The notes below the pieces were generated by a model. It had not been told where the DNA came from. It saw only the letters and a list, made by a program, of their open reading frames with translations, and did not search any database. A DNA stretch of 64,000 nt from a virus. Location of the stretch: the IMG/VR virus record IMGVR_UViG_3300017605_000956, positions 1 to 64,000 of that record. One strand, written 5' to 3'. The position numbers and the translations under genes were made by a program. This document shows, one piece after another, positions 786 to 61,258 of this stretch; position 1 is the stretch's first letter, and every line of letters starts with the position of its first letter.

Positions 786-1469
786 ATGAGCCTGAACAGC
801 GTCGTCGTCCTTCACGAGGCTCTCGGTAAAAAGATCCGGCACCCCATGCGTTCCGACTTCCGTCGCATCGTCTACAGCACCTACCCGGCGGCCATCGAGG
901 ATCTCGACCAGGAGGTCGCGGAGCTCGAGGCCCGTCACGACATCATCATCGTGGGCAGGGTGGGTGCGGCCATGCAGGTCCGCCCCGCCGTGGTCATGAA
1001 GCTGCGCGGGCGCGGCTGGATCGAGTCCACGAAGAACGGCCTGGTCCTCCTCTCGCCCCCCGGCTTCGTGGCGGCCCTGAAGGGCCTGGGCATGATCCAC
1101 GGGCTCGGTGAGATCACGCCCGAGCCGCTCCTCACCCCCGGCGAGCTGGTGGGTGGAGGCGTGGGCGCCGCGATCGCCGTCACGGGCATCGTGCTCGAGG
1201 GCAAGGTCGGAATCATCCTGGGCGTGCTGGGCGGTCTCGTCACGCTCATCGCGGGCGGATCCGCCGCCATCCGTCACCTGAAGTCGTCCCAGACCAGCGC
1301 GGCAGCCGGCTCCTCCCTGGCTCCGGCCGCTGCTGCGGCGGCGGCGGCTCCGCCGCCTCCGCCGCCCCCGCCTCCGAAACCCACGTCCCAGCAGCGTCTC
1401 CAGGCGGCCGTCACCGCCTACGGCCCGCTGGCCGCCGAGCTCATCAAGGGCGTGGTGTCGCTCTTCTGA
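786..1469 (+). CDS. putative virion membrane protein (2 TM, Pro-rich linker), paralog of 7063..7497
   Basis: GLGMIHGLGEI motif, Gly-rich hydrophobic hairpin, polyPro; GGAGG RBS. Confidence 0.65.
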   Translation: MSLNSVVVLHEALGKKIRHPMRSDFRRIVYSTYPAAIEDLDQEVAELEARHDIIIVGRVGAAMQVRPAVVMKLRGRGWIESTKNGLVLLSPPGFVAALKGLGMIHGLGEITPEPLLTPGELVGGGVGAAIAVTGIVLEGKVGIILGVLGGLVTLIAGGSAAIRHLKSSQTSAAAGSSLAPAAAAAAAAPPPPPPPPPKPTSQQRLQAAVTAYGPLAAELIKGVVSLF

Positions 1470-1470
1470 T

Positions 1471-1965
1471 ATGCAGCCCACGATGATGTTTGTCCGGGGT
1501 CGCATGGGGAGGATCTCCTCCCTGGGGAGCGACGTCTACAAGCGCCTCGTCACCTTCCGCCTGCTCGTGAAGGACTTCAAGGAGCGCGTCTTCCCGAACG
1601 TCGAGTTCGAGATCGTGCGCCACGGAGTCGGGGAGATGATCCTCTCGGGGAAGACCGACGGCAACGGGACCGCCGTGGTCGACTTCGAGACGTCGGCCCC
1701 CGAGTTCCTCGTTCGCGTCTATCTGCCCGAGGGCATGGTCATGAAGTCGGTGAGCGTCACCGCCGCCGACAGCGAGCCCATGGTCGTGAAGTCTCTCCAG
1801 GAGGCCCCACAGGTCCTCCTCAACACGATGGAGATGCTCGCGGGCGGCACGGGGCTCGCGCTGATCCTGATCGGCCTGCTGTCGAGGGTGACGCTGGTCG
1901 AGCGCATCGGAGAAACCGCCGTGATGGCGACCGTTTTCTACCGCGTGGGGAGAGCGGTCATATAA
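1471..1965 (+). CDS. membrane-anchored protein with prealbumin/Ig-like beta domain
   Basis: GKTDGNGTAVVDF beta motif and C-terminal hydrophobic helices. Confidence 0.55.
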   Translation: MQPTMMFVRGRMGRISSLGSDVYKRLVTFRLLVKDFKERVFPNVEFEIVRHGVGEMILSGKTDGNGTAVVDFETSAPEFLVRVYLPEGMVMKSVSVTAADSEPMVVKSLQEAPQVLLNTMEMLAGGTGLALILIGLLSRVTLVERIGETAVMATVFYRVGRAVI

Positions 1966-1991
1966 TCGTTGGTCGGAACCGGAGGAATGGA

Positions 1992-2507
1992 ATGGAGAAC
2001 ACCGAGAAGGCAGATGCCATGGCCGCGATCGACGGCCTGGCTGCCGAGATCCACGGGGAATACGTGAAAGCCGCCGAAGCGCGCGGCTCGAGGCTTCCCG
2101 CGTGGACCGAGATCCCCGAAGACGCCAAATCCATGTGCCGCACCCTCGCGCGGCTCACGATCTCGAAGATGGAGAAGACCTACTTCGAGGCTCGCGAGAG
2201 CGCGATGAAGGACTTCGAGAAGCGCCTCGCGGAGCGTCCCGCGGCCGCGGCGCCGGCGAAGACCTCCACCCTCGACCCCTTCAACGTGATCAAGGAGATC
2301 AATGTCCAGATCGACAAGGTGCTCGACCGGGTCTACGAGATCAAGTCGGGCAACCCGCTCGAAAAGGGAATCGACTCCGCGATCGAGATGTTCGCCCAGA
2401 AGCTCGCCCTCGAGGTCCTGAGCTCGAGCCCGGAGCTCGTGGCGAAGCTGAAGGACAACGTCATCGGAGCCCTCACGGAAGGTCTTCTCGGGGACAAGGA
2501 GGAATAG
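1992..2507 (+). CDS. hypothetical helical protein
   Basis: strong RBS; typical codon usage. Confidence 0.7.
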   Translation: MENTEKADAMAAIDGLAAEIHGEYVKAAEARGSRLPAWTEIPEDAKSMCRTLARLTISKMEKTYFEARESAMKDFEKRLAERPAAAAPAKTSTLDPFNVIKEINVQIDKVLDRVYEIKSGNPLEKGIDSAIEMFAQKLALEVLSSSPELVAKLKDNVIGALTEGLLGDKEE

Positions 2508-2510
2508 ACC

Positions 2511-2741
2511 ATGTTCAAGAACCTGCTGTCGAATCTCGGCCTGGGCCAGTCGGATCTGATCCACGTCTTCGAGGAGACGCTGAAGCGCATTGACCAGCGC
2601 GACCTCTCGACGCCCGATCTCCGCAAGGGCCAGTCGATCGCCATCATCGAGATGATGAACGTCCTGCGCGACGAGGACGTCATGGCGAACGCCACCTACC
2701 AGCTCCTCCAGAAGAAGCTGATCGAGTGGCAGGGCAAGTGA
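2511..2741 (+). CDS. hypothetical protein
   Basis: AGGAGG RBS; stop overlaps the next GTG. Confidence 0.7.
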   Translation: MFKNLLSNLGLGQSDLIHVFEETLKRIDQRDLSTPDLRKGQSIAIIEMMNVLRDEDVMANATYQLLQKKLIEWQGK

Positions 2742-4021
2742 ACGAGAACGAGATCGAGACCGCCGGGCAGGAGCAGCAGCCTACCATCCCAAGCCGCCTC
2801 GCCGGTTTCATGAACCGGATGCTCCGCCCGGCGTCGGCCAAGATCGCAGACCAGACGCTCGGGGTCGGGGGCCACTGCTGCACCGAAGACGGCCGCAAGC
2901 TGCTCAGTCCCGGCGTGCGGTGGGAAGGCGTCTTCTCGGGCTACTCCGGCTACGGCAAGGCGAACCGCGAGATCGTGATGCGGGTCGCGAACTCCATGGC
3001 CGTCGAGCTCCATCACTCCTTCGAGCCGCCCTACCGCGACGAGTACCAGCGCGCGCGGTACAAGCTCTACGAGAACTTCCGCGTGGCGAAGAAGGCGCCC
3101 TTCGTGCGCTTCTTCGGTCCCGATAAACCCGTCTCCGGGCAGCACCTCCCGAAAATCTGCTACACGATGATGGAGACGGAGCGGATCCACGCCGACATGG
3201 TGAACCACCTCAATGCGAAGTTCGACGAGCTCTGGTGCCCGACCGAGTGGAACATCAAGGCCTTCCAGAAGTCGGGGCTCAAGATCCCGGCGCGCGTGAT
3301 GCCCCTCGGCGTCGACCCGCTGCTCTACCGCCCCATGCCGCCGAAGGACTTCCCGCCGTGCCGGCTGCTCTCGACGAAGAACGCCGGGAAGAAGCACAGA
3401 CCCGACGGCTTCATCTTCATCTCGGTCGGGCTGCCGTCGATTCGCAAGGGCTTCGACGTTCTCACCCGCGCCTTCGAGGACGCCTTCGCCGGCGACAAGG
3501 ACGTCTCCCTCGTCTGCGCCGTCACCCACTACACGTCGAACGTCCAGGCCTTCGCGGAGCTCGAGAAGTACAAGAGCCGGATCTACGCGCTGACCGGGGA
3601 GTACACCGAAGCCCAGATGGCCCGGATCTACGCGAGCGCGAACGCCTACGCCAGCGCGAGCCGTGGCGAGGGCTGGAACCTCCCGGTGTGCGAAGCGGCC
3701 GCCTGCGGGCTTCCCGTGATCTGCCCCAACACGACCTCGCACCGCGAGGTCGTGGGCCAGGACGCCTTCATCTTCCACGCGGAAGGCTTCGCGCCCATCA
3801 AGGGCGCCGACTCGATCTCGCCGTGGTACAAGGACGTCCCCTTCTCGGTCTTCGGGAAGAAGTCGCACGAGGAGCTGGTGAGCATCCTCCGCAAGGTGCG
3901 TCGCAACCGGACCGAAGTGAAGATCATGGCCGAGTCGCTGAAGAACCGGATGCAGACGAAGCTGACGTGGGACCACGCGGCCGCGCGCATCACGAAGCAC
4001 CTCTTGGAGATCCAGGATTGA
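2738..4021 (+). CDS. GT4 family glycosyltransferase
   Basis: SGYGKANR, RKGFDVL, SRGEGWNLPVCEAAACGLPVI motifs. Confidence 0.9.
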   Translation: MNENEIETAGQEQQPTIPSRLAGFMNRMLRPASAKIADQTLGVGGHCCTEDGRKLLSPGVRWEGVFSGYSGYGKANREIVMRVANSMAVELHHSFEPPYRDEYQRARYKLYENFRVAKKAPFVRFFGPDKPVSGQHLPKICYTMMETERIHADMVNHLNAKFDELWCPTEWNIKAFQKSGLKIPARVMPLGVDPLLYRPMPPKDFPPCRLLSTKNAGKKHRPDGFIFISVGLPSIRKGFDVLTRAFEDAFAGDKDVSLVCAVTHYTSNVQAFAELEKYKSRIYALTGEYTEAQMARIYASANAYASASRGEGWNLPVCEAAACGLPVICPNTTSHREVVGQDAFIFHAEGFAPIKGADSISPWYKDVPFSVFGKKSHEELVSILRKVRRNRTEVKIMAESLKNRMQTKLTWDHAAARITKHLLEIQD

Positions 4022-7002: not shown

Positions 7003-7008
7003 ACAGGC

Positions 7009-7062: not shown

Positions 7063-7497
7063 ATGAGCCTGAACAGCAGCGTCCAGTTCTACGGCGGGTC
7101 GCTCGCGTCGCCCCGTCCGATGATTCGCCACCTCGGCGTCATCAACCTGGCCCAGCCCATCGTGAAGACCGAGGAAGCGATCGGCCTCGCGGCCGGTGCC
7201 GGACTGCTGGGAGGCGGCCTCATCATGAAGGGCAAGGGCGGCATGGTCATGGCGATCCTGGGCGGCCTGACGGCTCTCGTCACGGGCGGCCTGACGCTGA
7301 TGCGCCACATGAGCCCGGCGCCCACCGCGGTCGTTCAGCTCCCCGCCGCTCCCGCGGCTCCCAAGCCCTCCAGCACGCAGCAGCTCCTGACCACGTTCGC
7401 GCCGGTCGCGCAGCAGCTCGCCCCGCTCGTCCAGAACCTCTTCGCGAAGCCCACCCCGCCCCCGGCTCCCACGGGCGCGATCGTCACCTCGCTCTAA
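7063..7497 (+). CDS. putative virion membrane protein, paralog of 786..1469
   Basis: GGAGGAG RBS; MSLNS start, 2 TM, PKPSSTQQLL..LVQNLF tail. Confidence 0.7.
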   Translation: MSLNSSVQFYGGSLASPRPMIRHLGVINLAQPIVKTEEAIGLAAGAGLLGGGLIMKGKGGMVMAILGGLTALVTGGLTLMRHMSPAPTAVVQLPAAPAAPKPSSTQQLLTTFAPVAQQLAPLVQNLFAKPTPPPAPTGAIVTSL

Positions 7498-7951: not shown

Positions 7952-8824
7952 ATGCCGCTCACGCCCGTATTCGTCGAGAAGGCCACCGGAGATCAGGCGG
8001 CTCCTCAGATGGAGGAGCAGTTCGGTGGTGTCTCGAACGACGCCCGCCTGACCCAGTACATCGACTTCGTCGGCCGCCGGATGCTCCCCTACTCGCTCCG
8101 GGGCAACGAGCCCCACAAGTTCCTGGTCCTGAACGACGACAAGGTGATCAATGCCTTCACGCTCGGGAACGGGAACATCTACGTCACCAAGGGCCTCCTC
8201 AAGATGCTGGGCGACGAAGCCGAGCTCGCGGAGGTCCTGGGACACGAGAACGGTCACTTCGGCCATCGCCACATCGCAGCCCAGATGGACCGGGGGATCG
8301 GCCTCGGGCTTATGCTCGCGCTGGCGGAGGGCTTCTACGCGCAGGGCAAGGGCGGCCGGCTCAACGACACGCAGGGCGAGGCCATCGAGAAGGCGAACGA
8401 GCTGGCGATGGGCCTGGTCCTGAACGGCTTCGGCCGGGAGCAGGAGCTCGAGAGCGACGCCCACGGCCTCGAGACGATGGTGAAGTCCGGATACGACCCG
8501 ATGGGCGCCGTCTCGACCTTCCAGAAGTTCCAGCGCCTCGAGCACGAGGTCACGGGCCTGGACGCCTTCCTCCAGTCCCACCCCACGGCCAAGACCCGGA
8601 TCGACGACCTCACCGACGCCATCGCCCACAAGTACCCCAACGTCGAGGGGCGTCGCTACGTCGACCGCTACAACCGGATCGTGAACGGCGGCGAATCCCT
8701 GGACGACGTGGGCGAAGGCCGGGACGGCGGATCCAGCGAGATCCTGGGCGTCCCCACTCCCCTCGCGATCGCCGGAGGACTCGGACTTGCCATTACGACA
8801 GGGATTGTGATAGCCTCCCTCTGA
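7952..8824 (+). CDS. M48 family zinc metallopeptidase with C-terminal TM anchor
   Basis: INAFTL, LGHENGH (HExxH), EQELESD, SHP; terminal hydrophobic helix. Confidence 0.9.
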   Translation: MPLTPVFVEKATGDQAAPQMEEQFGGVSNDARLTQYIDFVGRRMLPYSLRGNEPHKFLVLNDDKVINAFTLGNGNIYVTKGLLKMLGDEAELAEVLGHENGHFGHRHIAAQMDRGIGLGLMLALAEGFYAQGKGGRLNDTQGEAIEKANELAMGLVLNGFGREQELESDAHGLETMVKSGYDPMGAVSTFQKFQRLEHEVTGLDAFLQSHPTAKTRIDDLTDAIAHKYPNVEGRRYVDRYNRIVNGGESLDDVGEGRDGGSSEILGVPTPLAIAGGLGLAITTGIVIASL

Positions 8825-8836: not shown

Positions 8837-9079
8837 ATGCCCAAGAACCTCGAGCGCGTCGCGGAACAAGCCGTGGAGGCCTGCGGCAGATTCCACACCA
8901 GCCTTCACCAGTGGCAGGATTGCGCGCGGGGCGTCAACATCGCCAAGCGCCTCACCAAGAAGCGTGGCCTCAAGGTCGGCCGGAAGGCGGCTCTGCGCGT
9001 CTGCAAGGCGACCGAGAAGGACCGGGGTCCTCGCCGGCGCTGTTTCGAGGGAGTCCGGTTCTTCACCACGGGGGTATGA
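8837..9079 (+). CDS. small basic Cys-pair protein (putative core protein)
   Basis: two C-x12-C-x2-GV units; K/R-rich. Confidence 0.7.
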   Translation: MPKNLERVAEQAVEACGRFHTSLHQWQDCARGVNIAKRLTKKRGLKVGRKAALRVCKATEKDRGPRRRCFEGVRFFTTGV

Positions 9080-9492
9080 TGAGCGGCAAGTACAAGCCCT
9101 TCGCGACCGCCAAGCTCACGGTGAAGAACAACCGGACCGGCTTCGGCTGGAGGTCTCCCAAGGACATGAAGGTCTTCGTCGACTCGGGTGCGTCCATCAC
9201 CATCCTGCCGCCCGAGGCCCTTCCGGTGCTCAAGCAGAAGACCGGCCACTTCGAGTCGATGCCGGCGCGCGTCCAGACGGCCAACGGCATCAAGGATGCG
9301 ACGGCCCTGAAGGACGCCACGCTCTGCCTCGACGCCGTCTGCTTCCGGGGCAACGTCCTCATCAGCGACGGGATCAACGGCGACGTCCTGATCGGTTCGG
9401 ACTTCCTCACGAAGGCGGGCTGTAAGCTCGACTTCAAAAAGAAGACCCTGAACTGCGGTGGCAAGCGGATCAAATTCAAGATGGAGGCGTAG
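9076..9492 (+). CDS. retropepsin-like aspartic protease
   Basis: FVDSGASITIL, VQTANG flap, VLIGSDFL. Confidence 0.9.
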   Translation: MMSGKYKPFATAKLTVKNNRTGFGWRSPKDMKVFVDSGASITILPPEALPVLKQKTGHFESMPARVQTANGIKDATALKDATLCLDAVCFRGNVLISDGINGDVLIGSDFLTKAGCKLDFKKKTLNCGGKRIKFKMEA

Positions 9493-9531
9493 AAGGTTCC
9501 GTAGCCGAAATATTTATTTGAGGAGGCGGCT

Positions 9532-9765
9532 ATGGAACAACCCAAGGTGGGGCAGCACGTGGTGTACGTGGACGAGCGCGGAGTCGCTCGGGATGCGTTG
9601 GTGACGGCGAACTGGGGTTCGTCGATCAACGTGGTCGTGGTGGAGACGGACGAGAACCAGACCGACAGCTACGGTCGGAAGATCGCCCGGGAAACCAGCC
9701 AGGTGCATCGCAGCAACCAGCAGGCGCCGGGGCGCTACTGGCGCTGGCCCAGCGAAACCGCGTAA
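9532..9765 (+). CDS. small SH3-like phage protein
   Basis: GAGGAGG RBS; PKVGQHVVY...PGRYWRWP. Confidence 0.65.
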   Translation: MEQPKVGQHVVYVDERGVARDALVTANWGSSINVVVVETDENQTDSYGRKIARETSQVHRSNQQAPGRYWRWPSETA

Positions 9766-9837
9766 GCGGTTGAAGCCCGACGAGAGCCGACCTTGACGCG
9801 ACGCTCGACGAGGGCGACTTAGGAACAGGAGATGCTG

Positions 9838-10185
9838 ATGGCTCGACGCAAGCGCCGGATCCGCATGGGCGCGATCGACCGCGACGACATCATGAACGCC
9901 GCGGGCAAGATGAAGCACTTCTGCCTCAAGAAGTGGGACACGAAGCAGTTCGTCTCCGCCTGCTCGAAGACGGTCGACGTGATGACGAAGAACCTGCTCG
10001 CCCAAGGCCCCGAGCTCACCGCCCACAACGTCGCGGCGGCCGCCAACAAGACGGACAAGAAGTGCGAGAGCTACAAGGCCGACCGTCGTGGACGGAACCA
10101 GTACGGCAGCGTGTGCTTCCGCGTGGTGGGCGGCTTCATCCGGCTGCTCTCCCAGTCGAAGCCCGGCCTGCAGGGGAGGCGATAG
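9838..10185 (+). CDS. small basic Cys-pair protein
   Basis: MARRKRRIRMGAI..., two Cys pairs, ends GLQGRR. Confidence 0.7.
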   Translation: MARRKRRIRMGAIDRDDIMNAAGKMKHFCLKKWDTKQFVSACSKTVDVMTKNLLAQGPELTAHNVAAAANKTDKKCESYKADRRGRNQYGSVCFRVVGGFIRLLSQSKPGLQGRR

Positions 10186-10488
10186 ATGCCGATGACGAAG
10201 TTCGAGGTCGAGGACACGTTCCACGAGGTCCTGAGCGTGTGCCGCGGCAAGTACGGGAGCAACCGCTCGAAGAAGGTGTGCAGCCGGGCGGCTCTCACGA
10301 TGAAGACCGAGCTCATGGACCGCGGCATCATCAACGCGAAGAACGTGGCCTCGGTCGCCAACGTGGTCGACCAGGAGTGCGCGAAGTCCGCGAAGGGCGA
10401 CCGGAAAGTCTGCATGAGGGCCGTCGCGACGTTCATCCGTCGCCTGGCATCCCGGAAGCCCGGTCTGAACGGCAGGAAGAGGAGATAG
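10186..10488 (+). CDS. small basic Cys-pair protein
   Basis: two Cys pairs, ends KPGLNGRKRR; paralogous to 9838. Confidence 0.7.
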   Translation: MPMTKFEVEDTFHEVLSVCRGKYGSNRSKKVCSRAALTMKTELMDRGIINAKNVASVANVVDQECAKSAKGDRKVCMRAVATFIRRLASRKPGLNGRKRR

Positions 10489-10490
10489 CC

Positions 10491-10679
10491 ATGGCACGTC
10501 GTCGTCGTCGCTCCCGCATGAGCGGGATCTCGATCCCGGAGGTCAACAAGACCTGCGCCGTCGCCTACAAGGGCGACCCCAAGGCGATCGCGGTGTGCCA
10601 GCGCACGGCGGGCAGCCTGATCCGGAAGATCGTCGCCAACAAGCCCAAGGTCTGCCAGAAGTTCTGCGGCTGCAAGTAG
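10491..10679 (+). CDS. small basic Cys-rich protein
   Basis: MARRRRRSRMSGI...CAVAYKGDPKAIAVC; AGGAG RBS. Confidence 0.7.
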   Translation: MARRRRRSRMSGISIPEVNKTCAVAYKGDPKAIAVCQRTAGSLIRKIVANKPKVCQKFCGCK

Positions 10680-10691
10680 CTCGCCCGAGAG

Positions 10692-10931
10692 ATGGTCACT
10701 CCGGAAGATTTCGCCGCCATGATCAAGGTTCGCCTCTACACGAGGGAGGGGAAGTTTGTCGTCGATGCTCCGTTCCTCCCGTACAAGACCCAGCCCGATG
10801 CGGTACTCTGGGGGAGCAGGTTCTTCATCTGGCACCCGGAGCACAAGCAGTACCGGGAGGGCTACGTCCACTACTGCGTGCCGAACCCGGCCAAGGTCGA
10901 ACGCGAGGAAGGGAACGGTCATGAAAGGTAA
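10692..10931 (+). CDS. hypothetical protein
   Basis: fills the gap; typical codon usage. Confidence 0.55.
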   Translation: MVTPEDFAAMIKVRLYTREGKFVVDAPFLPYKTQPDAVLWGSRFFIWHPEHKQYREGYVHYCVPNPAKVEREEGNGHER

Positions 10932-11271
10932 AGGACTCTCGGGCGCGCTCAAGGTTCGCCAGTGGGCCATCCAGGGCTGCGTCAGACAGTACGGCGGGCG
11001 CAAGAGCGAGCGGTACGGCCGGCGAGGCGGCTACGGCGACCAGATCGAAGCGTGCGTGAAGGCGGTGGACGGAGTCGTGACGGCGATCTCGGAAGGCAAG
11101 GCTCTGTACTTCTCCGACGCGGTCGACCAGGTTTCCAAGGGCTGCGTCAAGCTGCGCGACATGGCGGAGCAGCAGGCCTGCCTCACGGGCGCAACAGAGG
11201 TTCTGCTCAGGTCGAAGGGAACGACGGCGTCGCTCGAGGGGCGTCGCCGCAAGAAGCGGAGGCACAAGTGA
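10921..11271 (+). CDS. small basic Cys-pair protein
   Basis: MKGKGLSGA..., two Cys pairs, ends SLEGRRRKKRRHK. Confidence 0.7.
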   Translation: MKGKGLSGALKVRQWAIQGCVRQYGGRKSERYGRRGGYGDQIEACVKAVDGVVTAISEGKALYFSDAVDQVSKGCVKLRDMAEQQACLTGATEVLLRSKGTTASLEGRRRKKRRHK

Positions 11272-11513
11272 GAAGCGGACTGATCCAGACGAAGGTCTCC
11301 TGTCGCGAGAAGGACAAGGCCATCCCCGCGTTCACCCATCTCGTCCGGGAAGCCAACTGCGCGGGCGTGGTGCTCTGCAACGACCGGGGCCGTCTGTCGA
11401 TCGCGTTCTCCTGCTCGAGGGGCGAGGACACGCGCAAGCTCAAGCGGTCCGTGAACCGCGAGATGCGGCTGCTCAGGCACCACGGCCTCGCGGCCGCTCG
11501 CCGGCGCCGGTAA
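11268..11513 (+). CDS. small basic Cys-rich protein
   Basis: GTGA overlap; 4 Cys; ends GLAAARRRR. Confidence 0.65.
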   Translation: MRSGLIQTKVSCREKDKAIPAFTHLVREANCAGVVLCNDRGRLSIAFSCSRGEDTRKLKRSVNREMRLLRHHGLAAARRRR

Positions 11514-11576
11514 CTCTCCCCTGAGTTGTTGACAAAGGGACCCCGGAGAAGAAACCCAACGGAGAACGAGAGCCCC

Positions 11577-11828
11577 ATGTCGAATCGAAAGCATCGCCTC
11601 CGCGGCCGCGGGAAGCGCCTGGTCGACTGCTCGGTGGTCTGCAAGAAGGCGGGCCAGGTCGACTTCAACGTGTGGCCCCGGAAAGGCGAGAGCGACAACG
11701 AGGCCTGCCTGCGCCGGGCGAAGCTCTTCGTGCCCGGGAATCACTGCGAGATTCTGCGCGCCCGCGGCATCAACGGGCTCAAGCCGATCATGGGCGCCAC
11801 CAAGGTCGGCAGGATCGTTCGAGAGTAG
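11577..11828 (+). CDS. small basic Cys-rich protein
   Basis: MSNRKHRLRGRGKR; 4 Cys. Confidence 0.65.
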   Translation: MSNRKHRLRGRGKRLVDCSVVCKKAGQVDFNVWPRKGESDNEACLRRAKLFVPGNHCEILRARGINGLKPIMGATKVGRIVRE

Positions 11829-11833
11829 CAGGG

Positions 11834-11862
11834 TTGACACCGTATCCTCCGGCGGGTACAGT
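11834..11862 (+). promoter_or_regulatory. sigma70-type promoter
   Basis: TTGACA-N17-TACAGT. Confidence 0.75.
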
Positions 11863-11884
11863 TCCCGAAGACCGGAGGATTGAC

Positions 11885-12139
11885 GTGGCGAAACACGCAT
11901 CCAAGAAGAACAAGGAACTCCACACCGCGTTCATCCCCACGAAGGTCGTCTGCGAGAGGGGCAAGAAGGACCAGCTCCTCAAGGCCGCCCGGTTCCCGAA
12001 GACGACGTGCATCGACCGGACGACGTTCTGCCACGAAGGGAAGCTGTACATCAAGGCCACGTGCGATACGAAGGGCGCGGCGATGTCCTACGCCGATCGT
12101 GTAAAGCCCCTCATCACGGTTCTCCAGAAAGTTCTCTGA
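11885..12139 (+). CDS. small basic Cys-rich protein (similar layout to 11268)
   Basis: GGAGG RBS, GTG start; IPTKVVC vs IQTKVSC; 4 Cys. Confidence 0.65.
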   Translation: MAKHASKKNKELHTAFIPTKVVCERGKKDQLLKAARFPKTTCIDRTTFCHEGKLYIKATCDTKGAAMSYADRVKPLITVLQKVL

Positions 12140-12152
12140 AGGGAGCTCGGAC

Positions 12153-12941
12153 ATGGTCGCACCCCTGGTGATCGCGGGCCTCGGCGTCCTGGCCGCCGGC
12201 GCCGCCAACGTCGTGATCGGCAAGGCGAAGACCATCTACGCCGTCATCCGGATCCTGCACCGGAATCTGGTCGGCAAGATGTTCGACGACGTCTCGAAGG
12301 CCGAGGCGTACCAGGAAGAGCTCTCCCGCCACGGCCACAGCTCCATCATCGTCCAGAAGGTCTCCGGCGACAACGGCCGGGGAACGCGCTACACGTCGCT
12401 CCACCCCGTCCAGTCGATGAAGCCCGGGATGCACGGGATGCTGGGCAAGGCCTTCAGCGTCGCCCCTCCGGGCTACTGGCTGGTCAAGTGGCGCGCGCCG
12501 GGCTCGACCAATGAGCACCTCGAAGTCTTCGAGTTCGAGCGCGAGGCGAAGGAGCGCGTCCGCAACCTCCAGCAGGAGGCGGCCTGGGCGAGCACGTCGA
12601 TGGTGCCCCGGACGAAGCGGACGGCCGCGCATCCGAAGCTGCCCAAGAACGCCGTCCGGAAGATGGGCAACGCCCGCACGCTCGACACCAAGGACCAGCA
12701 GGAACAGGCCATCCTCCTCACCACGCGCTATCCCGCGGCCGAGCGGTTCCAGCGCGCCCGCACCGGCCCGTTCCCCGAGACGGCCCTGTTCGCCCAGAAC
12801 AAGGAAGTCCAGGTCCCCCTCTTCGATCAGACCACCTCGAGCCACGAGTGGAAGACGAGCGTCGTGACGGAGGCTCCCCCGGACAGCCCCCGCCAGCCGG
12901 ATATGCTCACCGTCGTCCAGTCGCTCCAGGATCCTGACTGA
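12153..12941 (+). CDS. N-terminally membrane-anchored hypothetical protein
   Basis: hydrophobic N-terminus; typical codon usage. Confidence 0.65.
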   Translation: MVAPLVIAGLGVLAAGAANVVIGKAKTIYAVIRILHRNLVGKMFDDVSKAEAYQEELSRHGHSSIIVQKVSGDNGRGTRYTSLHPVQSMKPGMHGMLGKAFSVAPPGYWLVKWRAPGSTNEHLEVFEFEREAKERVRNLQQEAAWASTSMVPRTKRTAAHPKLPKNAVRKMGNARTLDTKDQQEQAILLTTRYPAAERFQRARTGPFPETALFAQNKEVQVPLFDQTTSSHEWKTSVVTEAPPDSPRQPDMLTVVQSLQDPD

Positions 12942-12994
12942 TCGGGTTTCGCCCCCGCTTCGCGGGGGCGAACGAAGAAGCTGGGGGAGTTGCG

Positions 12995-13312
12995 ATGACC
13001 GCGCAGATTCAAGTTCGTGAGCTCGGCCAGATCAAGGGCCTGGGCGAGATCACGTGGACCCGTCAGACCAACGAACGCCTCGTCGCCGCGGGGCTCTCGG
13101 TCGGAGTCGGCGCGCTCCTGGGCGTCGGCATCAACCTGATCCAGAAGCCCAAGGGCATGACCCGCATGGCGACCTGGCTCTCCGTCGTCGGCTCGATGAT
13201 CGCGCTGGGCTCGTCGCTCATCCCGGTCGAGGGCTCGTTCTTCACCCACATCAGCACCGTCTCGGGCGGCCTCACGGGGTATCATGCCGTGACCGCCATG
13301 ATGTCCAAGTAA
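12995..13312 (+). CDS. small membrane protein with GLGEI motif
   Basis: ELGQIKGLGEI followed by 2-3 TM. Confidence 0.7.
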   Translation: MTAQIQVRELGQIKGLGEITWTRQTNERLVAAGLSVGVGALLGVGINLIQKPKGMTRMATWLSVVGSMIALGSSLIPVEGSFFTHISTVSGGLTGYHAVTAMMSK

Positions 13313-13322
13313 GGGATCGACG

Positions 13323-13817
13323 ATGACGAAACCCATTCGCGGCCTCGGCAAGATCGGCAGTGGCATCGAGAGCGACGTGGGCCTCTCGATCATGCAGCTC
13401 GGCATGATCACGGGCCTGCACGCCGCGATCTCGCCAAGCCTGTTCACCTTCGCCTGCTTCGCCAAGAAGCCCGAGGAGTGCAAGATCGCGCGGAGGACCC
13501 TCTGGGTTTCTCTTCTCGCGACGACGCTGACCAACGTCGGCGTCCTCTTCGCCTTTGGGCGGTGGGCTCCCGCGATCGCCGGACAGATCACGGGCACCGG
13601 TCTCTTCGCGCTGGGGATGCGAGCCATCGCCAACGCCGAGGAGGCGCCGGCCGTGCCGTCGATGGAAGTGAAGCCGGAAGAGATCAGCGAAGGGATTCAC
13701 GGGCTGGGCATCATCGAGCAGCAGCCCGAGGTCCTCGTCGGCCAGGATCACTGGCTCGACCGTGAATGGGCAGATCGGTATGACGACTGGTGGGCCACGC
13801 CCGCCGCGAGACTTTGA
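13323..13817 (+). CDS. membrane protein with GLG motifs
   Basis: IRGLGKI, IHGLGII; 3 hydrophobic segments. Confidence 0.7.
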   Translation: MTKPIRGLGKIGSGIESDVGLSIMQLGMITGLHAAISPSLFTFACFAKKPEECKIARRTLWVSLLATTLTNVGVLFAFGRWAPAIAGQITGTGLFALGMRAIANAEEAPAVPSMEVKPEEISEGIHGLGIIEQQPEVLVGQDHWLDREWADRYDDWWATPAARL

Positions 13818-13829
13818 TAGGGAGATGCC

Positions 13830-14351
13830 ATGCTCAAGCAGAACGAAAAAATGATGATCGGTGGCGCGGCGACGATCGCCGTGAACTCCACCATCCACTT
13901 CCTCGTCGCGAAGACGCCCTTCAAGACGCCGGAAGCTCCGAAGGTCGGGAAGAACGACTACGTGGCGCTGGGCCTCGAGCTCGGCGTCTCGGGCCTGTCG
14001 TACCTGGTCTTCGGCCCGGTACCCGCCATCGTGGGCGGCGTCGAGGCGCTGGCGCTGTTCGGCCTGCGTCTCGCCGGCGTCGGCCCGAAGGCTCCGGTCG
14101 AGGAGGAGGAGAAGCCGGCGCCGTCGTCGGCGAGCCTCCCTGCTCCCAAGACGACGGACGCGCCCGCTCCCAAGCCCGCGGCGCCGTCGCGTGAAGAGTT
14201 CCAGAACCCCGACGACTTCTCCGGCCCGGAGGACTTCGGCAACCCCGAGGACTTCGGCGGCCGCGAGGACTTCGCCAACCCCGACGTGCTCGAGGGCCGC
14301 GGCCGCAACCGTAGCCCCGAAGTCATGAACGGCGTGAGGTTCTACAGGTAA
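13830..14351 (+). CDS. membrane protein with acidic hexapeptide repeats
   Basis: hydrophobic N-half; [ED]DFxxP repeats. Confidence 0.7.
   Translation: MLKQNEKMMIGGAATIAVNSTIHFLVAKTPFKTPEAPKVGKNDYVALGLELGVSGLSYLVFGPVPAIVGGVEALALFGLRLAGVGPKAPVEEEEKPAPSSASLPAPKTTDAPAPKPAAPSREEFQNPDDFSGPEDFGNPEDFGGREDFANPDVLEGRGRNRSPEVMNGVRFYR
14193..14300 (+). repeat. six imperfect 18-bp coding tandem repeats
   Basis: EEFQNP DDFSGP EDFGNP EDFGGR EDFANP DVLEGR. Confidence 0.85.
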
Positions 14352-14355
14352 GCCG

Positions 14356-14628
14356 ATGATCATCGAAGGGCTGGGACAGATCCATCCGGGCGCTCCCCTG
14401 GGCGCGATCCGGCTGGACGGCGTGACGAAGCTGATCGTCAATCCGTGGGCCGCGATTGGCACGGATGCCCTGCTCTTCACGATGTCGGCGGCGACGTTCG
14501 TGCTGACCAAGAACCCGATCCTGAAGACACTCTCGATCCTGGGCGGGATCTGGGGCGTGACGGCCATCGCTCTTGAGACGTCGAAGCTCACCGGCGAGGC
14601 CAGCGACCCGATCTCGCGAGAGTACTGA
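14356..14628 (+). CDS. small 2-TM protein with GLGQI motif
   Basis: IIEGLGQIH..PLGAIRLDGV followed by 2 TM. Confidence 0.65.
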   Translation: MIIEGLGQIHPGAPLGAIRLDGVTKLIVNPWAAIGTDALLFTMSAATFVLTKNPILKTLSILGGIWGVTAIALETSKLTGEASDPISREY

Positions 14629-14822
14629 TGGACACCCCTCCTGCCGAGAAGATCGACTGCGAGGGGTGTTCCGGACGGGGCTTCACGATGTCCGTCGACG
14701 AGGACACCGGAACCAGGCAGCCAAAAGAACACAGCCGGTGCAACGGCGCCGGCATTCTGATCTACAGGGGCACAGGGAATGGAGGGGAGCCGGTATACAC
14801 GGCTCCGAAACTGTGGGCATGA
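14628..14822 (+). CDS. DnaJ-type zinc-finger mini-protein
   Basis: CEGCSGRG and HSRCNGAG. Confidence 0.6.
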   Translation: MDTPPAEKIDCEGCSGRGFTMSVDEDTGTRQPKEHSRCNGAGILIYRGTGNGGEPVYTAPKLWA

Positions 14823-15364
14823 ACTGGTGGGGCCTTCACGTCAAGCACACCGTCACGTACACTAAGGCGGCCAAGTCCAAGAACCGGATCGACATCCTTC
14901 GCGCGCTGATCTCGCTGCTCGACGGCGTCGGGTGGTGGGGAGGCATGGTCGCGGCGAAGGGCGGCGAGGCCAACGGGATCCTCGCCCACGGCCTGATGGC
15001 CGAGCACATCGTCGCTGCGAAGATGCTGGCCGACCAGCTCCCGGCGAACGATGAGGGCAGCGTGAAGGTGGCGCTCGAGCTGCTCTCCCGGAACGCGGAC
15101 TTCCAGGCGATGTTCTTCGGGGCGGCGTTCAACGAGTTCCCTCACGCCGAGTTTCGCAAGCTGATGACCGGGCACCTCGAGGCGCTCAACGGCTACGTCC
15201 ACGACTGGAACGCCGGGGACGAGGCCTCGTTCAACGCCCACGTCGCGGCCGCCATGAAGAACGCCGCGGACCTCGACGAGTTCACGTCCAAGAACCTCGT
15301 CGTCCACCGTCGTCCGACTCCCCAGCCGGCGCCGGAGACGGAGGACGAGCCCGTCGCGCCTTGA
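14819..15364 (+). CDS. His-containing helical-bundle protein, possibly metal-binding
   Basis: repeated W/L..H, LMAEHI, LMTGHL, NAD/NAA motifs. Confidence 0.6.
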   Translation: MNWWGLHVKHTVTYTKAAKSKNRIDILRALISLLDGVGWWGGMVAAKGGEANGILAHGLMAEHIVAAKMLADQLPANDEGSVKVALELLSRNADFQAMFFGAAFNEFPHAEFRKLMTGHLEALNGYVHDWNAGDEASFNAHVAAAMKNAADLDEFTSKNLVVHRRPTPQPAPETEDEPVAP

Positions 15365-15388
15365 CCTGCCTACGGGCAGAGCTATACT
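15361..15388 (+). promoter_or_regulatory. sigma70-type promoter
   Basis: TTGACC-N16-TATACT. Confidence 0.65.
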
Positions 15389-15408
15389 CCATCTCGAGGG
15401 ATCTGCTT

Positions 15409-15861
15409 ATGCCGGTGTCGCACAACCTCCACCTCCGGAAGAAAGACCTGCGTGCCGCCCTCCAGAAGGCAGAGGACGACATCCGCATCACCTGCGAGAC
15501 GAGGGAGATCGGATCCGGCTGCGTCCAGCAGTGCAAGGTCGGTGGGATGATCGTCATCGGCCGGATGTACGAAGAGATCAACCGCGTTCGTGCGAACGAG
15601 GGCATGGGCATGAAGAAGATCAGGCTCGCCGGCGGGAAGCTCGGCATCATCGTCTCCCCGATGGAAGACTGCCCCAAGGGCTTCGAGGAGATCGTCGTCC
15701 GCGGCGGCAAGAACCCTCGCGTCAAAATCTGCCGCCTGGACGAGAACCACCGGAAGAAGTGGGCGCCCAAGGGCAAGCCCGCCCACAAGGGCGCGCTGCG
15801 CCGGAAGACGAAGCCCCGCTACCTGCCGGGCGTCACCACCCGGGACATCCGCGAGGGATAG
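15409..15861 (+). CDS. basic Cys-rich protein
   Basis: GAGG RBS; Cys pairs; RLAGG; K/R-rich tail. Confidence 0.65.
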   Translation: MPVSHNLHLRKKDLRAALQKAEDDIRITCETREIGSGCVQQCKVGGMIVIGRMYEEINRVRANEGMGMKKIRLAGGKLGIIVSPMEDCPKGFEEIVVRGGKNPRVKICRLDENHRKKWAPKGKPAHKGALRRKTKPRYLPGVTTRDIREG

Positions 15862-16038
15862 ATGGCGAAGCCCCGACTGTCCTGCCGTGAGGTCCAGGTC
15901 TTCGTCGAGATGGGCGTCTTCAAGTCGGGCGACGTCGCCAAGCTGGCCCGACAGGGCGTGATCTCGATGAGCTGCGCCGAAGAGACTCGGCTCAAGATCG
16001 CCCGCAAGATCCAGATGAACGGTCGACGGAGGAAGTGA
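15862..16038 (+). CDS. 58-aa basic protein (not in ORF track)
   Basis: MAKPRLSC...KIQMNGRRRK; abuts genes on both sides. Confidence 0.65.
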   Translation: MAKPRLSCREVQVFVEMGVFKSGDVAKLARQGVISMSCAEETRLKIARKIQMNGRRRK

Positions 16039-16238
16039 TGGCTCGCAAGAAGGGCAAGCGCCGCCTCGCCGGCGAGATCACCGGCACCGACCTCCAGACG
16101 GCAATCCGCCTCGGCAAGAAGAACTGCGAGCGAACCTACGCCGACGACAACAAGGTCAAGATCAACGCCTGCTTCGACGGGGTGATCCAGGGAGCTCAGG
16201 CTCTCGACTGGGTCCATCGTGGAAAGGGAAGGTCGTAA
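16038..16238 (+). CDS. small basic Cys-pair protein
   Basis: MARKKGKRRLAGEI...CERTY..NACFDGV. Confidence 0.7.
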   Translation: MARKKGKRRLAGEITGTDLQTAIRLGKKNCERTYADDNKVKINACFDGVIQGAQALDWVHRGKGRS

Positions 16239-46884: not shown

Positions 46885-46885
46885 T

Positions 46886-55345: not shown

Positions 55346-55357
55346 CCGCCGCGCGCA

Positions 55358-55488: not shown

Positions 55489-55542
55489 AAACGGGATTTT
55501 TGTCAAGATGGAAAACGCTTTTCGATTTCGGATAAGCTACAA

Positions 55543-56965: not shown

Positions 56966-57231
56966 TGGCGAAGAAGACGAAGCTCAAGAAGCTCACGATC
57001 GAGGACCTCATGCACGAGGTCTCGAAGGTCCAGGCGGCTCTCGGGCCGGTGCTGAAGCTCAACGAGACGCTCCAGCAGCTCCAGCCCACCATGAACCAGT
57101 TGCTCGGGGAGCTCCGCGCGGTGCGGATCCTGCTCGACGAGAAAAAGCAGTACGCCTTCATGGACAAGCCCAGGGTCAAGCCCGAGGACCAGCGTCCGAT
57201 TCCAGAGAGCCTCGGCCTTCCCAGGCTCTGA
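56962..57231 (+). CDS. small coiled-coil protein
   Basis: ATGA overlap. Confidence 0.65.
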   Translation: MMAKKTKLKKLTIEDLMHEVSKVQAALGPVLKLNETLQQLQPTMNQLLGELRAVRILLDEKKQYAFMDKPRVKPEDQRPIPESLGLPRL

Positions 57232-57302
57232 ATCCAGCTAAGGCGGGGGCATACCGGAGAAATTACTCGGAGCAAATACTCAGCCGCATTCTGGCTATCT
57301 GC

Positions 57303-57331
57303 TTGACAAACTTCTGAGGTCGCCATACACT
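57303..57331 (+). promoter_or_regulatory. sigma70-type promoter
   Basis: TTGACA-N17-TACACT. Confidence 0.8.
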
Positions 57332-57358
57332 TCCGACCAAGAAACCTCGGAGGATGGA

Positions 57359-59101: not shown

Positions 59102-59134
59102 AGCGTCCGAAAAAACGCTTCCCGCAATCGAAAG

Positions 59135-59163
59135 TTGACCTCGCCCGTTCTCTGGAATATAGT
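59135..59163 (+). promoter_or_regulatory. sigma70-type promoter
   Basis: TTGACC-N17-TATAGT. Confidence 0.75.
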
Positions 59164-59321
59164 CCGTACAGCCCGGGGTGCCCTCGACGCCCTGGGTTAC
59201 GTTTCCCCCTCTCCCCGGGGCCAGGTCGCGCAGGGCGCGTCCTCCCTTGTGACCTGGCTCCCACGAGAGAGGGCGGCGAAGCAGCTCCGCGAGGTAGAAT
59301 GGTGGAATGGAGGGGAACAAG

Positions 59322-59624
59322 ATGCCTCAGAGCTTGACGAAACTGAAATGGGCGGAGCTCAAGGAAGTCCTGCTTCACGTCCCGATCCGCGCGAGGACGG
59401 CCGTGTGGCGCGAGTCCATGGACTTCGTCGACAAGGTCCTCGCCGGCCGCAACAACCTCTCTCCCACGATCGACCTCAAGACGATGCAGTACTCGGTCGC
59501 GTGCGACATCTGCAAGGAAACGCTCCGCGTCGAGGACGACTACGTCTTCCACGCGATCACCGCGAAGTTCGTCCACTACGACTGTCACCACAGGTCCACT
59601 GGGAATATCGGGGAAACCACCTGA
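59322..59624 (+). CDS. small zinc-finger protein
   Basis: CDIC...HYDC. Confidence 0.65.
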   Translation: MPQSLTKLKWAELKEVLLHVPIRARTAVWRESMDFVDKVLAGRNNLSPTIDLKTMQYSVACDICKETLRVEDDYVFHAITAKFVHYDCHHRSTGNIGETT

Positions 59625-59637
59625 CCGGAGATCCGCT

Positions 59638-60399
59638 ATGTCGAATCCCATCTCTCGCCGCCGCCAGTCCCAGCTCGACGCGCTGAACGATGCGCCGCCC
59701 GGCCGCGGCGAGTCGATCCAGCGCCCCATGTCCGCCGGCGCCGACGGGATTCGCAAGCTCGAGGTCCCGAAGATGGTGCAGTACGTCCAGACCTTCAACT
59801 CGGATCCGAAGGTTGTCACCCTCGCGCAGCGCGTCATCCAGCTCTGCGAGGCGAAGGACAAGATGTGCGAGATGAACACCCTGTTCCAGTGGACGAAGAA
59901 CCACTTCCGCTACGTCAACGATCCGATCGACAAGGAAGCGATCAAGACCGCGCCGCGCATGATTGGCGAGATCATGACGCCGCCCGAGGTGATCGAGCAC
60001 ATCCTGGGACCCGAGCTCATCACGCAGATGAATGGCTTCGGCCTGGGTCACGGCTCGCTGCTCGAGGGCGACCCGCGCAAGCGTCTCGTCCTCTGCATGG
60101 GCTGCTTCGATCAGCGCCTCTCCGGCCCGGTCCACTCGAAGGGCTCCGGTGACTGCGACGACGGCGCGACGTTCCTGGCGACGCTGCTCGCGGCTGTCGG
60201 CATCACGCCGCGCTTCCGCTTTGGCGGCCAGGAAGACGATTCCATGTCCGACGGCTGCAATTACCACCACGTCTGGGTGCAGGGCCAGGACGACAAGGGC
60301 GACTGGCACGACATGGACGTCACCGAGAAACGCTCGAAGCTCGGCTGGTTCTACGAAGGCTTCTCCTGCACCGGTGTTGCGGCCATCTTCGCGGAGTAG
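59638..60399 (+). CDS. transglutaminase-like cysteine protease (putative maturation protease)
   Basis: FRYVNDP, GDCDD (catalytic Cys), HHVWVQ (His), WHDMDVT (Asp). Confidence 0.85.
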   Translation: MSNPISRRRQSQLDALNDAPPGRGESIQRPMSAGADGIRKLEVPKMVQYVQTFNSDPKVVTLAQRVIQLCEAKDKMCEMNTLFQWTKNHFRYVNDPIDKEAIKTAPRMIGEIMTPPEVIEHILGPELITQMNGFGLGHGSLLEGDPRKRLVLCMGCFDQRLSGPVHSKGSGDCDDGATFLATLLAAVGITPRFRFGGQEDDSMSDGCNYHHVWVQGQDDKGDWHDMDVTEKRSKLGWFYEGFSCTGVAAIFAE

Positions 60400-60664
60400 A
60401 GTGCCCGGCAGCGGGTCGGGGTTCGGTGGATCGGGACGGATACGCTGAAGAAGTCCCGCGCGGTTGAGTCATCCGCGCAGAGTCCATCGCCCGACTCGCG
60501 GGGTTTTCCCCTCACCGTGCTCCCCCTGCGACGGCCCGCAACGCGGGCCGGCGCATGAGCGGAATTCTTTCTGTACGATTTAGGCTTGACACACCGAGCC
60601 ACTGCGGTAATACTCCGTCTCGATGAGGTCGTCACACCCGAGCCGCCGAAATAAGGAGATGCCC

Positions 60665-61258
60665 ATGAGCTCGAAGTGCCCGCCGGTCACCGTCAACCTC
60701 GACGAAGTCGTCGACACCGTCAAGGCGAAGATCCTGAGCGAGCACCCCGAGCTGACCTCCAAGAAGGTCGACGGGAACGTCCACAGCGTCGGCATCCGCG
60801 GCCTCGGCGAGATCCGTCTCGTCGAGCCCACCGTCGATCCGAGCCAGTTCGTGATCGGCTTCGTGTCGATCCCGAGCGTCGTCAACATGGCGACGAAGCT
60901 GATGCAGGTCGGCGTCATCTTCCCGAAGGTCGACCTCGCGCTCTCGCGCGGCATCTTCGCGGGCGTCACGCTCGCGGGCACCCTCATCTCCGGCGGCAAG
61001 TCCTTTCTCCTCGGCGCCTTCCTCGGCCAGGTCCCCTCGACGATCGACGCGCTCGCGGACATCGCGGTCGCGGCCATCACGAAGGCCAAGGCAGGCTCGG
61101 CGGCGGTCCAGGGCATCGACCTGGGCGGCCTGGGCGCGACGCAGGAGGAGGAGCTGCTGAAGCTCCGCGCCGACCTGATGCAGCTCCAGGGCATCGGGCG
61201 CGACGGCGGCGAGCAGATGTCGGGCCACCGCGGCGGCTCGGTCGTGTTCCACCGGTAA
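60665..61258 (+). CDS. virion membrane protein with GLG motifs
   Basis: AAGGAG RBS; IRGLGEI, DLGGLGA, LQGIG; hydrophobic core. Confidence 0.7.
   Translation: MSSKCPPVTVNLDEVVDTVKAKILSEHPELTSKKVDGNVHSVGIRGLGEIRLVEPTVDPSQFVIGFVSIPSVVNMATKLMQVGVIFPKVDLALSRGIFAGVTLAGTLISGGKSFLLGAFLGQVPSTIDALADIAVAAITKAKAGSAAVQGIDLGGLGATQEEELLKLRADLMQLQGIGRDGGEQMSGHRGGSVVFHR

Follow-up and report, generated by a model that had tools for sequence, protein, structure and literature searches.

A glycine-leucine tag shared by putative virion membrane proteins of an uncultured bacterial virus, and a transglutaminase-fold enzyme as a candidate for its recognition

Introduction

The IMG/VR virus record IMGVR_UViG_3300017605_000956 is 78,478 bp long, and its first 64 kb (positions 1 to 64,000, hereafter the window) form the stretch of DNA analysed here. 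Our subject is a short tag, in its full form I-x-G-L-G-x-I, that recurs on predicted membrane proteins of this virus, together with the product of gene 109 (g109), a candidate for the enzyme that recognises it. An original prediction, made from the letters of the window, had proposed that recurrent Gly-containing motifs on membrane and basic core proteins mark sites of adenovirus-like proteolytic maturation in a bacterial virus, and all 19 of the 19 strings it quoted are present in translated open reading frames (ORFs) that start where it had placed them. Adenain (AVP, MEROPS C5) cuts at two kinds of site, (M/I/L)XGG↓X (type 1) and (M/I/L)XGX↓G (type 2), and cutting at IVGL↓G in pVI frees the peptide pVIc (PMC4246237).

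Gene layout

The final 141 bases of the record are the same as its first 141, a terminal direct repeat, and the genome is therefore circular or terminally redundant, at ~78.3 kb. Its GC content is ~64%. A gene call based on GC content at third codon positions (GC3) gave 135 genes, every one on the + strand, to which we added an ORF at 10491-10679 (62 aa, GC3 0.88, MARRRRRSRMSGI...). Transmembrane (TM) segments are predicted in ~20 proteins, and small Cys-rich, Arg-rich proteins form an expanded family in the genome. The tag sites, the corresponding elements of the basic proteins and the candidate enzymes are collected in Table 1.

Table 1. Tag sites, related elements in basic proteins, and candidate processing enzymes in the window
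Feature	Position	Strand	Remark
g2 tandem LKGLGM-IHGLGE-I	1077..1115	+	between N-terminal soluble part and TM segments
g3 RMGRISSLGS, aa 11-20	1501..1530	+	R-M-G variant, N-terminal leader of TM protein
g11 IRHLGVI	7123..7143	+	N-terminal to TM segment; H replaces first G
g13, BepA/LoiP-type M48 metalloprotease (predicted)	7952..8824	+	HENGH 8243-8257, C-terminal TM anchor
g15, retropepsin-like aspartic protease (predicted)	9076..9492	+	DSGAS 9181-9195
g17 N-terminal Arg leader + RMGAI	9853..9876	+	homolog P0127 has RLGAI; P0126 as called starts just after the element
g17 C-terminal GLQGRR	10165..10182	+	L-x-G ahead of Arg tail
g18 C-terminal GLNGRKRR	10462..10485	+	
ORF 10491-10679, Arg leader + RSRMSGI	10509..10529	+	further basic Cys-rich family member
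g20 N-terminal KGLSGA	10930..10947	+	
g20 C-terminal SLEGRRRKKRR	11230..11262	+	
g25 tandem VRELGQ-IKGLGE-I, aa 7-19	13013..13051	+	ahead of two TM segments
g26 N-terminal IRGLGKI, aa 5-11	13335..13355	+	
g26 C-terminal IHGLGII, aa 125-131	13695..13715	+	linker joining TM core to variable C-terminal module
g28 IEGLGQI, aa 3-9	14362..14382	+	ahead of TM segment
g31 C-terminal QMNGRRRK	16012..16035	+	
g32 N-terminal KRRLAGEI	16056..16079	+	
g109, transglutaminase-fold Cys enzyme (predicted)	59638..60399	+	253 aa, single domain
g109 QMNGFGLG loop	60025..60048	+	[LM]-x-G-F-G-[LV]-G; predicted disordered aa 132-164, pLDDT <50, just upstream of catalytic Cys
g109 Cys173	60154-60156	+	in GDCDD 60148-60162
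g109 His211	in YHHVW 60262-60276	+	
g109 Asp225/227	in WHDMDVTE 60304-60327	+	
g110 IRGLGEI	60794..60814	+	gene directly downstream of g109
g110 second site LGGLGA	61121..61138	+	within variable, gapped segment
g110 third site LQGIG	61184..61198	+	weaker: L-x-G in most homologs, second G in ~half

A short linear signal on membrane proteins

The tag, a short linear signal, has the core [ILM]-x-G-L-(G/R). It stands in N-terminal leaders at residues 3-19 (g25, g26, g28) or at the borders between protein modules (g2, g26, g110, g131), and it is often doubled as tandem hexapeptides, as in LKGLGM-IHGLGE-I of g2, VRELGQ-IKGLGE-I of g25 and LRGLGR-INLGN-I of g131. Beyond the tag, the tagged membrane proteins show no similarity to one another.

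Expected counts were obtained by shuffling the residues within each protein. The full form I.GLG.I was observed 6 times against 0.029 expected, an excess of ~200-fold, and its maximum in 1000 shuffles was 1. Related patterns were likewise in excess: GLG.I with 8 against 0.7, [RKH].LG.I with 10 against 1.1, and [ILM].GL[GR] with 24 against 3.9 (15 against 3.5 when the repeat protein g131 is left out), while [ILM].G.G was modestly enriched (37 against 25). The loose form [LM].G was not enriched (p 0.04, or 0.12 without g131), [LM].G[RK][RK] was not above chance (5 against 3.5), and the adenain type-1 pattern [ILM].GG occurred about as often as expected (26 against 25.5). The recurrence of motifs on which the original prediction was built is thus borne out for the GLG core, which is also conserved (see below), and not for the loose [LM]xG. 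The [ILM].GLG matches at the C-termini of g24, g127 and g128 fall within TM helices and are probably just Gly-rich helices.

As a guard against post-hoc choice of a pattern, all contiguous and one-gap patterns were scanned. Among ~76,000 observed 4-residue patterns, GLG.I and I.GLG ranked 7th and 8th, behind three Pro-rich low-complexity patterns and then NH.KV, EIVR and AE.VL; each had p = 6e-6, which alone is not Bonferroni-significant. In the 3-residue scan, LG.I (19 against 7.3) ranked 19 of 18,627 and was not significant after correction.

The distribution over the genome is uneven. When the genes are split by gene content, and not by expression, into a putative late set (g1-32, g107-135) and an early set (g33-106), GLG.I occurs 8 times in late and 0 times in early proteins, [LM]G.I 22 and 4 times, and [ILM].GL[GR] without g131 14 times and once (p = 4e-4). 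The original prediction had named this comparison as one that could refute its proposal; the motif is the commoner in late proteins, and the proposal was not refuted by it.

Several known signals that resemble the tag in outline were rejected on sequence. Type IV prepilin, lipobox, PEP-CTERM and double-glycine signals do not fit: the Gly is not followed by a hydrophobic stretch with Glu+5, Cys and GG are absent, and the motif is not C-terminal. The lack of enrichment of [ILM].GG also speaks against a double-glycine/C39 system, and no C39 domain was found among the late proteins scanned.

Conservation of the tag in relatives

The 29 homologs of g26, at 54-87% identity, show which positions of the tag matter. 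In the N-terminal copy the initial I is kept in 23 (V in 3, F in 1), the first G in 26, L in 24 (I in 3), the second G in 28 and the final I in 22 (V in 6, M in 1), and the two x positions hold 6 and 9 different residues. The C-terminal copy is also retained, often as a tandem G-[VLMI]-G-R-I-x-G-L-G, inside a linker rich in insertions and deletions, and some homologs have a different C-terminal domain after it. In the seven homologs of g110 (48-81% identity) the tag is kept as [IV]-[RKS]-G-L-G-x-I, two of them having MGEI, and the second site reads G-[LI]-G-A-[ST] in all; the most distant relative, contig L009, has PGIGSA there and also retains EGLGY in its g110 homolog. A 595-aa ORF of the same contig, considered as a long N-terminal part fused to a g110-like domain, was set aside as a high-GC open-frame artefact.

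Outside these families, g127 (MPSQLLELGATQLLELGNT) and its L009 counterpart (L009:2064-3164, 366 aa, MPSSLIELGSVELLELGAY) have in common a tandem N-terminal L-x-E-L-G pair. A search with g128 as query found no homolog in the Thermoanaerobaculia metagenome-assembled genome (MAG) behind contig L012.

Conservation of the tag alongside free x positions is seen independently in three families: g110, g26 at both of its sites, and the C-terminal part of g131. As a short linear motif the tag is real and conserved, and it is specific to g131 and the putative virion membrane proteins.

The repeat protein g131

The gene for g131 lies beyond the window, at L050:10767-12308, which corresponds to genome positions 74767-76308. 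Its product has seven full copies of the acidic 19-mer VSAYDLAGLREDDAxVR[LM]G plus partial units; a basic insert then leads to the tag LRGLGRI, and the C-terminus holds a TM anchor. All 19 codons of the 19-mer vary synonymously among the copies, and the amino acid varies only at positions 15 and 18 (L/M). Counted over the copies within this genome, there are 209 synonymous and only 21 nonsynonymous codon differences, so that selection on the peptide sequence itself is strong.

An exhaustive HMMER search found 30 homologs of g131. In these relatives the array is built of a 12-mer, GLREDDAxxR[LM]G, which may be preceded by VSAYDxx, in 1-11 units per homolog among those that have units. Across 180 units in 25 homologs, the G and L before REDDA are present in 100% and 99% respectively, and ahead of them comes [LM] in 92%, followed by a variable residue. 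What the repeats share with the tags of the membrane proteins is therefore [ILM]-x-G-L, and the tag motif forms the borders of the peptide array. Downstream, the element FH[EP]RFPV is followed by [IVL]-x-G-[LI]-G-x-[IV] in 14 of the 15 homologs that have it.

Looser motifs in basic Cys-rich proteins

The tag thus appears to be shared by unrelated, putatively virion-borne membrane proteins, by g131 and, judging from a looser [LM]-(x)-G form, by the small Arg-rich Cys proteins. In the latter, [LM]-(x)-G sets the Cys-rich core apart from Arg leaders (g17, the ORF at 10491, g32, g20) and from Arg tails (g17, g18, g20, g31). The L, G and R of the C-terminal L-x-G-R-R are invariant in g17, g18, g20 and two homologs. 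These three proteins form one paralogous family with four shared Cys, so their C-terminal motifs are not independent and count as a single event. The claim that the motif separates Arg/Lys tails from the folded core is accordingly right as to position, and weakened by the chance-level frequency of [LM].G[RK][RK] and by the paralogy of the tails. For similar reasons the proposed total of more than a dozen substrates is not sustained, since it counts paralogs and includes loose [LM]xG matches, which are no more frequent than expected by chance.

The top three over-represented 3-residue patterns of the scan were C.LC (9 against 0.8), CP.C (8 against 0.7) and C.AC (9 against 1.0), an excess that reflects the many CxxC-type small proteins encoded at 8837-16238 of the window and elsewhere. 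Among the most over-represented 4-residue patterns were AE.VL (8 against 0.8) and E.VLT (6 against 0.45), spread over many genes at 25015-53790.

A candidate enzyme, g109

The product of g109 matches the Pfam family Transglut_core (PF01841) at 30.2 bits against a cut-off of 23. It has 94 homologs, ~50 of them at >=40% identity, and most carry PF01841; in 30 aligned homologs, spanning 39-100% identity, C173, H211 and D225/D227 are invariant. An AlphaFold2 (AF2) model has a predicted local distance difference test score (pLDDT) of 75.7, with the core above 90. Its fold matches are 3kd4 (Z 13.3), factor XIII (11.6), TG2 and TG3 (~11), 3isr (10.4), PNGase (9.9), PeiP (9.4), LapG (9.1), PeiW (8.9) and CPR-C4 (8.2), with a Foldseek E of 4e-5, and no sequence relative was found in the PDB. 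As modelled, g109 is a transglutaminase-fold enzyme and is not adenain-like in fold.

The enzyme has a motif-like loop of its own, QMNGFGLG, which most homologs conserve and the most distant ones lack; this loop is possibly an autoprocessing or pseudo-substrate site. The gene order g107-g108-g109-g110-g111-g112-g113-g114 is the same in all relatives that reach far enough. In one relative (metagenome contig L011, Ga0247727_10002546), the g109 homolog is interrupted by a 363-aa intein (L011:4689-5777; Intein_splicing 1.3e-12, LAGLIDADG_3 2e-4) that begins CIPFSQ and ends ILVHN, and whose +1 extein residue is the catalytic Cys; insertion exactly at this Cys is typical of functionally critical sites. 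The same homolog has an in-frame TGA at L011:5883-5885 (GAT GGC TGA AAT TAC CAC), where g109 has Cys206 (DGCNYHH); a sequencing error, a broken gene and selenocysteine are all conceivable.

A relative of g109 exists in a cultured virus. SSIP-1 is a membrane-containing tailless phage with a PRD1-adenovirus-type architecture and two types of major capsid protein (PMC6356626), and its gp34 is annotated as 'structural protein' in JN880423. Comparison of g109 with gp34 gave E 1.5e-9 with phmmer and 5e-18 with a profile, and hhalign aligned the two at 97.7% (E 1.6e-12, 129 columns, 28% identity) with Cys, His and Asp in register. By sequence, gp34 is a homolog of g109. The two differ: a linker of its own (RGMGE) and a C-terminal TM anchor are present in gp34 and absent from g109, whose GFGLG loop is in turn missing from gp34; the SSIP-1 genome, at 44 kb, is also smaller than the 78 kb here. 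A further likeness lies in small virion or membrane proteins of SSIP-1 that also have G-[LM]-G near their N-termini (ORF36, gp37, ORF52 and gp53, at residues 17-34), a weak excess of GMG (5 against 1.3 expected). Apart from g109, no protein of the g107-g114 module was detectably related to SSIP-1, and g111 and g112 gave hhalign probabilities below 5% against its structural proteins. The idea that gp34 is a g109-g110 fusion was dropped (hhalign 0.7%), as only two short local resemblances were found (G[LM]GE and G-x-VP-[ST]-x-ID).

We consider g109 the strongest candidate for recognising the tag. The original prediction had pointed to the same gene, and its choice is strengthened by the invariant triad, the synteny with a structural module and the SSIP-1 homolog, with the reservation that an enzyme of transglutaminase fold may be a lysin or a cross-linker.

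Other encoded proteases

Two further genes, lying inside the block of membrane- and basic-protein genes, are candidates for alternative processing enzymes on the strength of their domain matches. The product of g13 matches Pfam Peptidase_M48 (5e-30, 105 bits against a cut-off of 20.3) and, with scores below the equivalog cut-offs, BepA/LoiP-like families of NCBIfam. That of g15 matches gag-asp_proteas (4e-8, 34.2 against 28.2) and RVP (3e-6, 27.8 against 20.7). For clan CE, neither Peptidase_C5 (PF00770) nor C48 (PF02902) gave a match at E<=1 in six frames. A Pfam scan of 47 late proteins found no protease family; its only convincing match was to g118, the other four being at E ~1e-3 or weaker.

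Kind of virus and host

Relatives come from soil and sediment metagenomes and from two Acidobacteriota MAGs (Vicinamibacteria and Thermoanaerobaculia), so the host is probably an acidobacterium; some of the homologs sit on long contigs of 75-84 kb. No match to deposited phages was obtained by blastn and tblastn with g109, g111 and a 4.6-kb stretch, and scans of IMG/VR with g109, the g109 alignment and the g26 alignment returned no relatives. In six frames there was no match to Terminase_6N or to Phage_capsid (HK97-type), from among the few tailed-phage families tried, nor to FtsK_SpoIIIE (the FtsK-type ATPase), the sole ATPase family tried. None of g107 and g109-g114 matched a PHROG.

The model of g111 is of low confidence (pLDDT 60); its top match is the SPV1 capsid protein (Z 5.5), and the list is dominated by jelly-roll capsid proteins at Z ~5, weak matches whose likeness is no more than suggestive. 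A look-up of g111 look-alikes in the Atlas gave nothing but unnamed viral clusters, and its lead towards a PM2 P2-type protein failed a direct test, P2_N and P2_C giving no match. In the most distant relatives g111, the best-conserved beta-rich protein, is present as two tandem paralogs (L009:3954-5245) and g112 as a two-domain fusion (L010:2556-3455), an arrangement that would fit two-jelly-roll capsid proteins, the evidence from folds being weak. The lineage probably consists of large bacterial viruses, membrane-containing and tailless, that are distantly linked to SSIP-1.

Three other genes deserve mention. The 661-aa product of g118 (L050:2251-4236) has Calx-beta (1.5e-22) and BNR/Ycf48-like propeller repeats (1.6e-14) and an Arg-rich, signal-anchor-like N-terminus, and is a candidate spike or receptor-binding protein. 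A tyrosine-recombinase-like gene was assigned at 77435-78082 by reading the sequence. The last gene, at 78079-78478, is cut off by the end of the record, and its reading frame is picked up again where the window begins.

Discussion

We suggest that g109, as a virion-associated Cys enzyme of transglutaminase fold, recognises the tag during particle assembly and cuts at or next to it. Such cutting would take off short N-terminal leaders, part modules that are joined by flexible linkers, and chop g131 into peptides. The scissile bond would be I-x-G-L↓G, as in adenain type-2 sites, or L-G↓x, which are indistinguishable here. We hold this reading tentatively, as the one we would put to work before the others: it fits the location of the tag in leaders and at the borders of modules and repeats, the presence of an invariant Cys enzyme with an SSIP-1 homolog that is called structural, and the precedent of LapG within the fold.

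A number of observations weigh against it. The leaders of g26 and g28 have only 6-9 residues, and there is little reason to remove them; they fit a docking tag equally well. The whole g131 12-mer is conserved, including the REDDA core and not the borders alone, as is expected of a repeated binding module. Two other proteases, g13 and g15, are encoded among the tagged and basic proteins, and the transglutaminase fold also holds the cell-wall isopeptidases PeiP and PeiW, cross-linking transglutaminases and amidases, so that the fold does not fix the activity of g109. Moreover, the late and early sets rest on gene content, and the definition of the motif was adjusted after the data had been seen.

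The first two of these points lead to a different account, in which the tag is bound and not cut. An assembly factor, the capsid shell or the coiled-coil protein g107 would use it to recruit membrane proteins into the membrane patch of the virion, g131 would serve as a multivalent hub or as an acidic chaperone for the Arg-rich proteins, and g109 would have some other role. The conservation of the entire g131 unit, the extreme N-terminal position of several tags (residues 3-11), their tandem duplication, which suits avidity, and their restriction to membrane and virion proteins all agree with this. We take it seriously, as only a little less likely than cleavage by g109. Against it, tags also lie where a conserved module meets a variable one and in disordered linkers rich in indels, places typical of processing sites, and the genome encodes three proteases, including one in the structural module. 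Docking and cleavage can also go together, as the capsid-targeting sequence of T4 both targets and is cleaved.

Cleavage by an enzyme other than g109, namely g13, g15 or a host peptidase, would leave g109 as a virion-borne lysin for entry or exit, or as a cross-linking transglutaminase. The catalytic motifs of g13 and g15 are intact and their genes lie among those of the tagged proteins; the fold of g109 matches PeiP, PeiW and true transglutaminases about as well as LapG; and virion-associated lysins are known in PRD1-type phages. Set against this, of the encoded enzymes only g109 is proven to keep a fixed synteny with structural genes, and it has its own motif-like loop. Papain-like enzymes commonly prefer a hydrophobic residue at P2 and a small one at P1, a preference that suits L-G. 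On balance we regard this alternative as improbable. It would be more surprising still if there were no shared recognition at all, the motif being a Gly-flanked turn or hinge by membrane helices that spread by paralogy and composition without a common partner. That the basic proteins are paralogs, that some [ILM].GLG matches are plain Gly-rich TM helices and that the loose [LM]xG is not enriched are what such an account would predict. It does not accommodate membrane proteins that lack similarity outside the tag, the ~200-fold excess of I.GLG.I, five fixed positions conserved in three families while the x positions and flanks vary, or a related tag and enzyme in SSIP-1, and we consider it very unlikely. 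The rest of the probability belongs to something else altogether.

If the tag is cut by g109, the nearest comparison is with adenovirus. The core I-x-G-L-G has the same form as the adenain type-2 site, of which IVGL↓G is an exact instance, a resemblance of sequence only. The proposed substrates would likewise include both membrane-active proteins and Arg-rich ones that bind DNA, a Gly site marks off Arg-rich termini as it does in pVIc, and the enzyme is probably carried in the particle. The systems differ in that the enzyme here is modelled as transglutaminase/papain-like and not of clan CE, type-1 sites are not enriched and the host is bacterial. The adenovirus analogy of the original prediction therefore survives, as a likeness of sequence, for the type-2 consensus and fails for type-1 sites and for a clan CE protease, and any likeness in cleavage would be convergent. 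We can only speculate, at rather long odds, that this widespread, uncultured lineage matures its particles by an independently arisen adenovirus-like logic, in which a packaged g109-type protease cuts [ILM]-x-G-L↓G in precursors of membrane proteins and protamine-like core proteins and frees ~10 acidic 19-residue peptides from a membrane-anchored polyprotein.

Within the fold of g109, the LapG family, or bacterial transglutaminase-like cysteine proteinases (BTLCP), offers a precedent for an endoprotease (Z 9.1, rmsd (root-mean-square deviation) 3.7, 127 aligned residues). LapG is a true endoprotease that cuts a small-residue motif, the di-alanine in LapA. It differs in being a periplasmic, calcium-dependent cellular regulator with another substrate motif, and it has no sequence-level match to g109. 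PeiP and PeiW (Z 9.4 and 8.9), which are pseudomurein endoisopeptidases encoded by viruses of methanogens, are, like g109, virus-encoded Cys enzymes of transglutaminase fold; they cut cell-wall isopeptide bonds and not viral proteins, and are the model for g109 as a lysin. The gp21 protease of T4 and its capsid-targeting sequences resemble the present case in the short N-terminal leader common to unrelated particle proteins. The T4 leader both targets and ends in the simple consensus [LI]-x-E, and processing yields acidic internal peptides. In contrast, gp21 is an unrelated serine protease of a tailed phage, and its site is of a Glu type and not a Gly type.

Maturation at consensus sites follows Glu-type sites and serine proteases in tailed phages, and Gly-type sites and clan CE proteases in adenovirus, poxvirus and African swine fever virus. 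To our knowledge, there is no account of it in membrane-containing tailless prokaryotic viruses or with an enzyme of transglutaminase fold, and a literature search found no description of such a tag-plus-enzyme system. If the cleavage is real, it would bring a new enzyme fold to this role and the role to a new type of virus, by convergence with adenovirus. Because the cultured phage SSIP-1 has the enzyme together with a weaker form of the tag, the idea is testable at the bench. A seven-residue tag on unrelated virion membrane proteins would also give a handle on how proteins are selected for an internal membrane, and it would let the virion proteome of a whole uncultured lineage be predicted from sequence.

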